From a virus (taxonomy: Duplodnaviria; Heunggongvirae; Uroviricota; Caudoviricetes), in the IMG/VR virus record IMGVR_UViG_2703718836_000005, positions 1 through 25,124 of that record: a DNA stretch of 25,124 bases. One strand, 5' to 3'. Position numbers and translations under genes: made by a program. Every line of letters begins with the position of its first letter. The first letter of the stretch is position 1. Below, one piece after another: positions 1,148 to 8,579 of the stretch. The notes beneath the pieces are model-generated. The model had not been told where the DNA came from. It saw nothing but the letters and a program-made list of their open reading frames with translations, and ran no database searches.

Positions 1148-1411
1148 GTTACTCTTCCTTAAACACAAGGCACTTGTGTGAATCCCTTTTCGGAAGAGAT
1201 TTTATTGAAAGTCACTTGTTGACTTTCTCGCGAAAAGTAATTTTTTAAATTTTTTGTGCGGGGAAGTGGACGGTGAATGCAGGCGTTAAATCGTGGGAAT
1301 TTCAGTCTGAAATTCTCCTAAAAAACACATGCAAATCATAAGGTTAGTAATGAAATTAGTGCGGGACATTTTAGGAAGGGGAGGGGCTAACACCACCTCC
1401 CACCAGCGGGA
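1148..1411. promoter_or_regulatory. parS: parS-like partition site region downstream of parB
   Basis: Non-coding 264 bp directly after the parB stop; perfect 19-bp palindrome GAATTTCAGtCTGAAATTC at 1297-1315 built from heptamers resembling P1 ParB box A (ATTTCAC-like); further GTGAAT/AGTCAC heptamer-like copies at 1171-1186 and 1273-1279; IHF-like AATCATAAGGTTA near 1335-1347. Confidence 0.5.
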
Positions 1412-4839: not shown

Positions 4840-4895
4840 ATTACTTTTTCCGAATTATGTGGATAGTTTTTATAAGTGATGATAACTACCCAGGC

Positions 4896-4957
4896 TTTCC
4901 CGTCAGCACACATTTTTATCCCGCCAGCACACATCGTTTTCCCTCCAGAACACATCG
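4896..4957. repeat. oriR origin iterons (inverted orientation, at least three clear copies)
   Basis: TTTCCCGTCAGCACACATT, ATCCCGCCAGCACACATC and TTTCCCTCCAGAACACATC are reverse complements of the 19-bp iteron, immediately upstream of the repA start. Confidence 0.8.
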
Positions 4958-4995
4958 CGATACACTTCTAGGCCAGACGTGGCGCGGCCTGCAAC

Positions 4996-5075: not shown

Positions 5076-5100
5076 GAAAAACCGGCCAACATAGCCGGTT
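5076..5100 (-). terminator. intrinsic terminator after the upfA-like gene
   Basis: Minus-strand hairpin AACCGGC / GCCGGTT (6-7 bp, 7-nt loop) followed by TTTTTCAC. Confidence 0.5.
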
Positions 5101-5517: not shown

Positions 5518-5850
5518 TTAGTTACCGCTAATAGCTCGGTTGTAATCATTAACGTTGCGATTCTTCCTATTAATCCCCATCAGCATCGTTTCTGTATCGA
5601 GGATATACGCTGGCAGATCATCAAAATATTCACTGCTAAACTCTGGCATCCTGCACATAAATGCACTTTTTGGGTCAGGGTGGTTAACCTTTGTCGGCGT
5701 CGGCGTTAAATTCGCTGATCGACTCCCGGAGCAACCGCTGAGTGTCAGCAGGAATACGCTGGCGAACATTACCCGCCGCAACCAGTTGTTTCTGAACTTC
5801 AGCTTTTCGTTCCATTTGCCTGTCAGCATATTTGGCTTGTTCTGATTCAT
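5518..5850 (-). CDS. predicted lipoprotein (lipobox LTLSGC); candidate outer-membrane spanin subunit
   Basis: Signal peptide with lipobox L-S-G-C, mature part has a Pro/Thr-rich stretch TPTPTKVNHPDP; SD AGGAAG 6 nt before the ATG at 5848-5850; an internal start at 5769 (MFASVFLL...) is also possible; overlaps the 3' end of the upstream TM gene in another frame. Confidence 0.6.
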   Translation of the reverse strand: MNQNKPNMLTGKWNEKLKFRNNWLRRVMFASVFLLTLSGCSGSRSANLTPTPTKVNHPDPKSAFMCRMPEFSSEYFDDLPAYILDTETMLMGINRKNRNVNDYNRAISGN

Positions 5851-6106
5851 TTTTCACTTCCTGGCTGTGAAAATGTTGCTCTGCTTTGTTCATCGTCTCA
5901 ATGGTCTGGTTAAGATCCATTATTGACTTATCACGTTCCTTAACAGCCTGATCAAGACTGCCAATTTTCTCCATGGCTTGCTTTAGCTGATGACGTTCCC
6001 ATGCAAACCCAGCACCAACAAGTGCGCAAATCAGAACAAGAACACCAGTAGCAGCAAGTTTCTCCTTCAAAGACAAAGCTGTTTTTAACGTAGAAAAGAA
6101 TGACAT
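5684..6106 (-). CDS. N-terminal transmembrane, coiled-coil protein; candidate inner-membrane spanin subunit
   Basis: Start moved to the ATG at 6104-6106 (MSFFSTLK...), which has SD GGAGG 5 nt upstream (ORF track starts at 6133); one hydrophobic helix LAATGVLVLICALVGAGFAW followed by charged helical sequence. Confidence 0.65.
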   Translation of the reverse strand: MSFFSTLKTALSLKEKLAATGVLVLICALVGAGFAWERHQLKQAMEKIGSLDQAVKERDKSIMDLNQTIETMNKAEQHFHSQEVKNESEQAKYADRQMERKAEVQKQLVAAGNVRQRIPADTQRLLRESISEFNADADKG

Positions 6107-6145
6107 GTCTTCCTCCTGAAGAAAAATTATCAATGAAGTCCTTTG

Positions 6146-6942: not shown

Positions 6943-7227
6943 CTAACTTACCTGAACCAGGCCGTCTCCGGACGCTACGGTAGATCCGCATGAAACAGGG
7001 TCACCAACGCATACGATCCCTTTACCATTGACGGTAAACCATGCCCTGGTTGATATAGCTTGCCCACCGTGCGTACTGTTTCCATCGGTATGCTGTGCAT
7101 ATTGCTTACCATCAACTAACACTTCGACTCCGTTGACTTTAAGTAGTGGTTCACTCTCTACAGGAGGCCTGGATGGGAATCCTCCGTGCCCCGAACAAAT
7201 GCTGTCTTTTGTTGCAATACTTGCCAC
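6943..7227 (-). CDS. small PAAR-like (spike-tip-like) protein, hypothetical
   Basis: 94-aa ORF with GTG start; repeated HGG and VNGK.../GDPVSCGS blocks reminiscent of PAAR-repeat proteins; weak, by-eye assignment. Confidence 0.4.
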   Translation of the reverse strand: MASIATKDSICSGHGGFPSRPPVESEPLLKVNGVEVLVDGKQYAQHTDGNSTHGGQAISTRAWFTVNGKGIVCVGDPVSCGSTVASGDGLVQVS

Positions 7228-7308
7228 GTCATCACCAATTATTTGCTCTGATTTTCGTTATTTTAACTCAGGTTGTTTGTGGTCTACATGGAGTTCAACT
7301 ATTGCAAA

Positions 7309-7325
7309 ATTGCTCTAATAAATAT
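7309..7325 (+). promoter_or_regulatory. C1-operator-like 17-mer (16/17 to ATTGCTCTAATAAATTT) in the divergent intergenic region
   Basis: ATTGCTCTAATAAATAT; TTGCTC could double as a -35 hexamer for the rightward operon beginning at 7397. Confidence 0.55.
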
Positions 7326-7396
7326 TGTTTTTTATGTCGTATTTTCGGTACCATTCAGCCATCGCCCTTCAATGGGCATTTGTTTGGAGTCGTCAG

Positions 7397-7681
7397 ATGC
7401 AGATGGAGCTAATAAGCCGCAAAGAGTTCGATAGCCGTGTAACCAGCGGTGAACTCGACAACTTGCAGGCTATCAAGGTGAAAGAAGGCTTTTGCCTCAT
7501 TGGGAATCAGAGCGGAACAAATCGCGTTTTTATGCTTCGCCGTACGGATTTGAAGCCATTTGTCTGGAAGAACGAAATTGGTCCCAGCTCATACGCTCAA
7601 ACGAGGGGGTGCCACAACCTGGCCTTTTTCTACAAAGACGAGCTTTCTGTGGTTGATATTCAAGGGTTACAACATGTTTAA
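7397..7681 (+). CDS. hypothetical protein, first gene of the rdgC-methyltransferase operon
   Basis: ATG at 7397 with SD GGAG 7 nt upstream; stop overlaps the next start (ATGTTTAA). Confidence 0.5.
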
Positions 7682-8579
7682 GCACTGGAAAAACATTACT
7701 ATTTATAAACTTTCTCGTGAGGCGGATCTGACCGACTTAGAAGATAAAAAGAAAATGATCCTTTTCACGCCATGCGGTAGTCAGGATATGGCCAAGTTCG
7801 GTTTTGTATCTCCATTTGGTGATAATTCCGAAGTTATCGCTATGCATGGAAATGGTTTTATCCTTGTTGAAGCAAAGCGCGAAACAAAAATTCTTCCCCC
7901 GCCGGTTATCCAGCGAGCTATTCAAGAAAAAATTGAAAAACTTGAGCAAGAACAAGCGCGTAAACTGAAGAAAACAGAGAAGGACTCCCTGAAAGACGAA
8001 GTTCTGCATTCTCTTCTGCCACGGGCTTTTTCAAAGTTTTCTGTTATCCAGGCGATCTACGACGGTTCAACTAAACGCATCTATATCAATGCCAGCGCGC
8101 GGCAGGCAGAGGATATGCTCGCGCTTATGCGTAAGTCTCTGGGTTCTCTTCCTGTTGTGCCACTAAGTGTTGAAAATTCCATTGAGTTAACGCTGACCGA
8201 CTGGGTACGTGATGCTAGTGCTCCACAGGGATTTCAAATGGGGGATGCGGCAGAACTTAAGGCAGTGCTTGAGGATGGCGGTATCGCCCGAGTGAAAAAG
8301 CAGGATTTGGGAAGCGATGAAATTTCCACACACCAGGAAGCTGGCAAGCTCGTCACAAAGTTGGCACTCGACTGGCAGAACCGCATTAAATTTACACTGG
8401 ACCATAACTTCAGCCTTACCAGCGTCAAATTTGCGGATGAATTGCTTGAGCAGAACTCTGATATTGATAGTGAAGATGTTGCGCAGCGACTGGACGCAGA
8501 TTTCTTCCTGTTAACCAGTGAAATTTCGTGCCTGGTTGATGCTCTGGTAAATGCCCTGGGCGGAGAGGCTAAGCAGTGA
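7674..8579 (+). CDS. rdgC: recombination-associated protein RdgC homolog
   Basis: 301 aa; translation shares long blocks with E. coli RdgC as I recall it ([61 protein letters not shown]). Confidence 0.85.

Follow-up and report, generated by a model that had tools for sequence, protein, structure and literature searches.

The question raised by this locus is whether two overlapping genes lying beside a plasmid origin, one for a helical membrane-anchored protein and the other for a small lipoprotein, encode the two components of a spanin, and whether such an assignment would be new. The window, i.e. the whole stretch of DNA analyzed here (25,124 nucleotides), belongs to a P1/P7-like phage-plasmid variant. 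In a comparison over 25 kb, P7 and one P1 isolate matched it with 88% coverage and the P1 reference with 78%, at approximately 97.5% identity. With respect to the reference phages the window is thus a mosaic (88% vs. 78% coverage), several of its segments departing from canonical P1. The 851 bases spanning the pair are 99.2% identical to phage P1 (NC_005856, positions 63236–64083) and to P7, and the genes annotated beneath this match in P1 are upfA, mlp, ppfA and upfB. The match confirms the identification of the two genes as ppfA and mlp of P1 in the first-pass annotation. The same annotation was wrong, however, in regarding their functions as unassigned and a spanin role as a fresh assignment, since Kongari et al. 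2018, Bednarek et al. 2022 and RefSeq all precede it.

Indeed, the spanin assignment of ppfA/mlp is already known from a curated spanin table, from RefSeq and PHROG annotation and from the literature on P1 lysis. Comparison with the curated set, one of the checks proposed at the outset, located the pair in Table S1 of Kongari et al. 2018 (PMC6139136), which classes P1 gp064 and gp063 as i-spanin and o-spanin, respectively, of the overlapped type. These are the same two genes as in the window; start codons and ribosome-binding sites coincide, and nothing of substance differs: PpfA of the window departs from gp064 by one residue (I45M; 99.3% identity to P1 PpfA) and Mlp departs from gp063 by two (S7N and A59D). 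Bednarek et al. 2022 (PMC9025707) refer to ppfA and mlp as 'the spanin genes of P1', the pair having been identified, going by the citation in that paper, by Summer et al. 2007. In PMC9025707 ppfA is labelled the o-spanin and mlp the i-spanin, which is swapped; the sequence features together with Kongari Table S1 give the reverse, with ppfA as the i-spanin and mlp as the o-spanin. The RefSeq name of mlp is 'Rz-like spanin', several GenBank records use Rz/Rz1 or Rz-like spanin for the pair, and the available part of the P1 record carries for mlp the note 'possibly involved in regulation of lysis (by homology)'.

The two genes and the signals within and before them are located in the window as follows.

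6112–6117, minus strand: Shine-Dalgarno sequence AGGAGG of ppfA, with the ATG start downstream (anti-Shine-Dalgarno duplex energy −10.3 kcal/mol).
5684–6106, minus strand: ppfA, the i-spanin candidate, 140 aa with an N-terminal transmembrane segment and a helical periplasmic domain (ORF, translation, phrog_89 match).
6002–6058, minus strand: codons for the predicted transmembrane helix of PpfA, residues 17–35 (Kyte-Doolittle; inside the predicted helix 13–110).
5857–5862, minus strand: Shine-Dalgarno sequence AGGAAG of the annotated mlp ATG, AGGAGG in diverged relatives (duplex energy of the window's site −5.0 kcal/mol).
5518–5850, minus strand: mlp, the o-spanin candidate, as annotated a lipoprotein precursor of 110 aa with a mature part of 71 aa (ORF, phrog_30284, LysC homology, codon-position conservation).
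5779–5781, minus strand: TTG codon for Mlp L24, a possible alternative start located 16 residues N-terminal to the lipid-modified Cys and matching the position of Met1 in P2 LysC.
5731–5742, minus strand: lipobox codons L37-S38-G39-C40 of Mlp, with Ser at +2 (L[SN][GA]C in 8 of 8 loci).
5684–5850, minus strand: dual-coding overlap of 167 nt, mlp being +1 relative to ppfA (translation; raised ppfA third-position identity).

PpfA had been described as a protein with one N-terminal transmembrane helix followed by a long coiled-coil periplasmic part. Hydropathy bears out the single helix: the top 19-residue Kyte-Doolittle segment consists of residues 17–35 (LAATGVLVLICALVGAGFA, mean 2.35), Lys 8, 14 and 16 stand on its N-terminal side, and the scan of all 140 residues revealed no second hydrophobic segment. 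The topology predicted in this way is that expected of a type II inner-membrane protein (N-in/C-out). The coiled coil, on the other hand, is supported for the membrane-proximal half, in which a single-register heptad pattern is strong from about residue 37 to 88 and was reached by 8 of 500 shuffles, whereas the remainder is helical in the AlphaFold2 model (helix 13–110, break 111–119, helix 120–137), the mean pLDDT of 69 indicating moderate confidence. No periplasmic cysteine is present in the PpfA sequence, and the Pfam search returned coiled-coil noise only, with nothing above threshold.

The existence of a lipoprotein gene with the lipobox LSGC is confirmed by translation and by the conserved L[SN][GA]C-S pattern. 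The Ser at +2 of Mlp, with no Asp, matches the pattern that would direct a lipoprotein to the outer membrane. The signal peptide is 39 residues long, which is atypical; for P1 gp063, Kongari et al. 2018 (PMC6139136) give the LipoP cleavage at residue 39 in Table S1 and flag the protein with 'Too long signal sequence'. The description of the mature protein as proline-rich is moderately true: it contains 6 Pro in 71 residues (8.5%), mostly near the N-terminus, with four within the first 21 residues (TPTPTKVNHPDP). A single further, periplasmic cysteine, C66, is invariant in the alignment and common to P2 LysC; the same distribution is recorded in Table S1 of Kongari et al. 2018 (PMC6139136), with gp064 lacking a periplasmic cysteine and gp063 having one. 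In Pfam, Mlp gave nothing above threshold, the sole match being a sub-threshold one to the lipid-attachment family LPAM_1.

Of the two subunits, Mlp is the one with homology to a known spanin in direct comparison. Aligned by BLASTP, Mlp and P2 LysC are 37% identical over 68 aa (E 3e-7), the alignment covering the signal peptide, the lipobox, a PTP motif and the conserved periplasmic cysteine. The profile comparisons agree: Mlp matches phrog_30284 'Rz-like spanin' (2.2e-77) and phrog_456 (1.7e-4), while P2 LysC matches phrog_456 (1.7e-31) and also the Mlp family phrog_30284 (5.4e-4). PpfA matches phrog_89 'Rz-like spanin' (1.2e-25), as P2 LysB does (5.8e-61), and three distant full-length relatives of PpfA (P0101, P0108 and P0116) match the i-spanin PHROGs 89, 739 and 214. 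The match of PpfA to phrog_89 may, however, reflect its own membership of that family and not independent homology, and direct comparison of PpfA with P2 LysB (BLASTP and profile-sequence comparison/hhalign) or with lambda Rz gave no significant similarity. The i-spanin side of the assignment therefore rests mostly on architecture. In NCBIfam, the best match of PpfA was phage_LysB (TIGR03495; E 0.0013, 19 bits vs. a cut-off of 92.75) and that of Mlp was P2_Rz1/LysC (NF038368; E 0.068, 13.3 bits vs. a cut-off of 27), scores by which the two proteins are not members of these equivalogs but at best remote relatives. A PDB sequence search found no relative, and the PpfA family is narrow, with 34 matches among the 1.84 billion representative proteins scanned by profile.

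The architecture resembles that of P2, in which the o-spanin gene likewise starts inside the i-spanin gene and runs past its end (lysB 7922–8347, lysC 8202–8492) and in which the products are of similar size (LysB/LysC 141/96 aa vs. PpfA/Mlp 140/110 aa). Annotated Mlp differs in having a 23-residue N-terminal extension that is absent from P2 LysC. Lambda Rz/Rz1 also combine a type II inner-membrane protein carrying a helical periplasmic domain with an outer-membrane lipoprotein whose gene lies in the +1 frame, but Rz1, a precursor of 60 aa, is fully embedded in Rz, whereas mlp overlaps ppfA and extends beyond it. The lambda proteins fall into other PHROGs (13 and 3198) and are without significant sequence similarity to the P1 pair. 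Further, lambda Rz has two periplasmic cysteines, which serve homodimer disulfides, in contrast to none in PpfA and one in Mlp.

The surroundings of the pair comprise the following features.

6943–7227, minus strand: upfC, with which the same-strand block opens, encoding a tail spike tip of the PAAR type (ORF; P1 annotation; PMC12810830).
6146–6991, minus strand: upfB, the gene immediately preceding ppfA, for a baseplate 'tripod' protein (ORF; P1 annotation; PMC12810830).
5114–5506, minus strand: upfA, last gene of the block (ORF; P1 annotation).
5080–5100, minus strand: terminator-like hairpin with a trailing T run, situated between the end of upfA and oriR (consensus scan only).

On the shared strand the order is thus upfC, upfB, ppfA, mlp, upfA and the hairpin, then oriR/repA. 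In the P1 cryo-EM structure (PMC12810830), UpfC is the PAAR protein that tips the tail spike and UpfB is a baseplate 'tripod' protein; since these are tail tip and baseplate proteins, the genes upstream of ppfA are late structural genes. The claim that the pair lies beside the plasmid origin and not in a recognizable lysis cassette is accurate: its neighbors are upfC, upfB, upfA, oriR and repA, and in P1 coordinates lyz and lydA/lydB are about 43 kb and 32 kb away, respectively. The P1 spanin genes are likewise described as a separate, unlinked operon in PMC9025707. P2 differs in this respect, lysB and lysC following the holin and endolysin genes in the lysis cassette Y-K-lysA-lysB-lysC, while the P1 pair follows tail-tip genes and abuts the plasmid origin. 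Neither in the window nor in any relative found was there a holin or endolysin gene near the pair, which always stood beside the plasmid replicon, and the neighborhood therefore offers no guilt-by-association support. A lysis-cassette location is usual for spanin genes but not obligatory.

Searches for relatives placed in a lysis cassette were negative, tblastn of 50,697 phage records retrieving P1-like phages and JK004 only. A word-indexed protein search gave P1-like elements only, and locus scans of viral and genome collections gave almost exclusively near-identical P1-like sequences. The distant relative with retrievable context (L097) again proved to be a P1-like element with the same synteny, and P0108 was absent from the viral contigs searched.

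Some variation was seen around the pair. One Klebsiella-type P1-like contig (L089:4424–4977) is, unlike the other relatives, without upfA between mlp and repA. In three diverged P1-like contigs (L088, L090 and L091) the protein at the upfA position has a precomputed Pfam match to Phage_gp49_66 (PF13876), and UpfA of the window has no Pfam match. In the incC/oriR region (window 4852–4960, junction near 4898/4899) 43 nt of the P1 reference are missing from the window, a deletion that takes out two of the five RepA-binding iterons and leaves three. The full spacing of 271 nt occurs in 18 of the 19 P1-like loci that have both flanking anchors, the window alone measuring 228 nt.

The reading of the two genes as an overlapped i-spanin/o-spanin pair is supported by their architecture, the homology of Mlp to LysC, the PHROG matches, selection on both frames and late RNA-seq. 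The gene structure, the targeting signals, the two-frame selection and the Mlp–LysC homology come directly from this analysis, and late transcription comes from the literature; complex formation, topology and membrane disruption would follow the published Rz/Rz1 model (PMC9025707, PMC6139136). Cumulatively, we consider it likely that PpfA and Mlp are the two components of the spanin in this P1-like phage and would disrupt the outer membrane after the action of Lyz. According to this model, late transcription would cover the pair along with upfC and upfB, which encode tail-tip proteins. PpfA would anchor in the inner membrane by its N-terminal helix, with the helical, partly coiled-coil domain reaching into the periplasm, while Mlp, after export and lipid modification on Cys40, would be directed by its Ser at +2 to the outer membrane and would reside there in the inner leaflet. 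Binding between the C-terminal periplasmic portions of PpfA and Mlp would connect the two membranes through complexes that span the periplasm and are caught in the peptidoglycan network. Destruction of the wall by the holin and the SAR-endolysin Lyz would free these complexes, which would then disrupt the outer membrane by linking it to, or fusing it with, the inner membrane.

The main alternative is that ppfA and mlp form a genuine spanin by descent, which is expressed but redundant or dispensable for the release of P1, the outer membrane being disrupted in another way. As stated explicitly in PMC9025707 (2022), the lysis role of the P1 pair is without experimental demonstration, and the functional data bearing on it come from a plaque screen under CRISPRi (PMC10695390). 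Two values are given there for each gene, 0.24 and 0.19 for mlp and 1.3 and 1.2 for ppfA; both genes were scored non-essential, on plates with 5 mM CaCl2 and 5 mM MgSO4 in the top agar, while Rz of lambda was scored essential within the same study. This result argues mildly against an indispensable role of the pair. Plating with divalent cations and the contrast with lambda Rz both fit a dispensable spanin, as does the P1 lysis system itself, which is unusually complex and scattered, with several holin-like proteins (PMC9025707). On the other hand, knockdown by CRISPRi is partial and may be incomplete, lyz itself giving just 0.05 and lydA 0.12 (PMC10695390), and plaque formation differs from a lysis assay. 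Dispensability is also opposed by the strong purifying selection that acts on mlp and the overlapped frame across P1-like elements with only approximately 60% identity, and we regard this alternative as improbable. Because spanins are non-essential for lysis in shaken laboratory cultures (PMC9025707), the proposal that intact lysis after deletion of both genes should refute a spanin role was too strong.

Still less probable, in our estimate, is that PpfA and Mlp act in the envelope but not in lysis, for example in assembly or membrane penetration linked to UpfC/UpfB, or in exclusion or conversion by the prophage. In P1vir RNA-seq (PMC8201110, Table S1), the five genes upfC, upfB, ppfA, mlp and upfA show log fold changes of 4.1–5.6 at 10 min and of 10.5–11.2 at 30 min, whereas uhr and hrdC, early genes next to the block, have reached 8.6–9.4 at 10 min. 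The kinetics of the block match those of lyz, lydA/lydB, gene 23 and the capsid and tail genes (PMC8201110), and the designation of the locus as a late-type operon is thereby supported for the whole upfC–upfA block. The strand and late kinetics that ppfA/mlp have in common with upfC/upfB are compatible with a role connected to the tail, and the position of the genes next to the plasmid maintenance region with one in the prophage. The transcription signals point the same way. In the P1 record, the promoters annotated before ppfA are solely the predicted sigma-70 promoters P1ppfA and P2ppfA, inside upfB, and a canonical late promoter was not found upstream of upfC: the pattern AAGTKAYTT-N4-TANNNT, derived from LPlyz, LP23 and LPdar, had no match at up to 2 mismatches in 7228–7400 (minus strand), weak ones appearing at 3–4 mismatches. 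Elsewhere in the window, an exact LP23 late promoter occurs at 1199–1217 (minus strand), and the only near match to the late pattern, with 3 mismatches (AAAGGACTTCATTGATAAT), lies immediately 5' of ppfA at 6126–6144. Against a non-lysis role stand the homology of Mlp to a lysis protein of P2 and the architecture of ppfA/mlp, which is specific to overlapped spanins. Further, neither PpfA nor Mlp is among the virion components named in the available part of the cryo-EM paper (PMC12810830), and their transcripts, low at 10 min, rise about 60–80-fold by 30 min (from the values in PMC8201110), as those of lysis and structural genes do.

The remaining question is whether mlp encodes a protein at all, as gene callers often omit or shorten it, JK004 and many contigs carrying a call of 44–52 aa or none. 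The loci compared were Cronobacter phage JK004, five contigs with PpfA approximately 60% identical and one contig with 93% identity, to which a still more distant P1-like element of 94 kb was later added. An mlp ORF of 109–110 aa in the +1 frame, with ATG and Shine-Dalgarno sequence, was present in all P1-like loci examined, and in every compared locus Mlp retained the lipobox L[SN][GA]C followed by Ser at +2, as well as the cysteine-containing motif FMC(R/T)MP, and was well conserved in its C-terminal half. Nine P1-like elements share the overlapped pair, among them a P0101-type relative with a profile match of just E 8e-23; the architecture of two genes overlapping in different frames, as first described, is thus real and is kept in all relatives. 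Downstream of the ppfA stop codon, identity at mlp codon positions 1, 2 and 3 is 0.82, 0.86 and 0.55, respectively (P1 type vs. the class with approximately 60% identity), which is a coding-type pattern. The third codon positions of ppfA have an identity of 0.40–0.47 outside the overlap and of 0.82 where the overlap covers Mlp residues −16 to +17 (numbered relative to the lipid-modified Cys), the rise beginning at ppfA codons 109–112. Because of the mlp codon pattern 3' of the ppfA stop and the constrained ppfA third positions in the overlap, we conclude that both frames are under selection. With synonymous sites of ppfA constrained exactly where the signal peptide and mature protein of Mlp are encoded, and with Mlp being homologous to LysC, the view that mlp is a chance ORF in and after ppfA from which no protein is made is therefore ruled out, being refuted at the level of sequence evolution.

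The constraint does not extend over the whole of annotated mlp. The part of the overlap that encodes the first 23 residues shows no extra constraint (0.34), and these residues vary freely among lineages yet stay basic. The codon at −16 was considered as the real start, which would be favored by the onset of constraint and by the alignment with Met1 of LysC; this codon is TTG in P1 types, ATG in five of the six diverged loci and Arg in JK004. It was not adopted, on account of the Arg codon in JK004 and of a weak Shine-Dalgarno sequence, the anti-Shine-Dalgarno duplex energy at this codon being −0.5 to −7.1 kcal/mol in all loci. For the annotated ATG the corresponding values are −10.3 to −11.6 kcal/mol in six diverged loci and −5.0 kcal/mol in the window, and this ATG and its Shine-Dalgarno site are kept in 8 of 8 loci. 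The simplest reading of these alignments is that translation of mlp would begin at the annotated ATG, with a long basic leader that would be free to vary in sequence. A speculative and rather unlikely extension is that P1-like phages may make two isoforms of Mlp, or may slow its export via the long basic leader.

In summary, ppfA/mlp represents a rediscovery: the feature is real and was correctly read as an overlapped spanin pair, and it matters little as a discovery since the spanin assignment has been published. If true, two isoforms of Mlp or export slowed by its leader would amount to a mode of spanin control with no described counterpart in lambda or P2, and such control could also relate to the weak CRISPRi phenotype.
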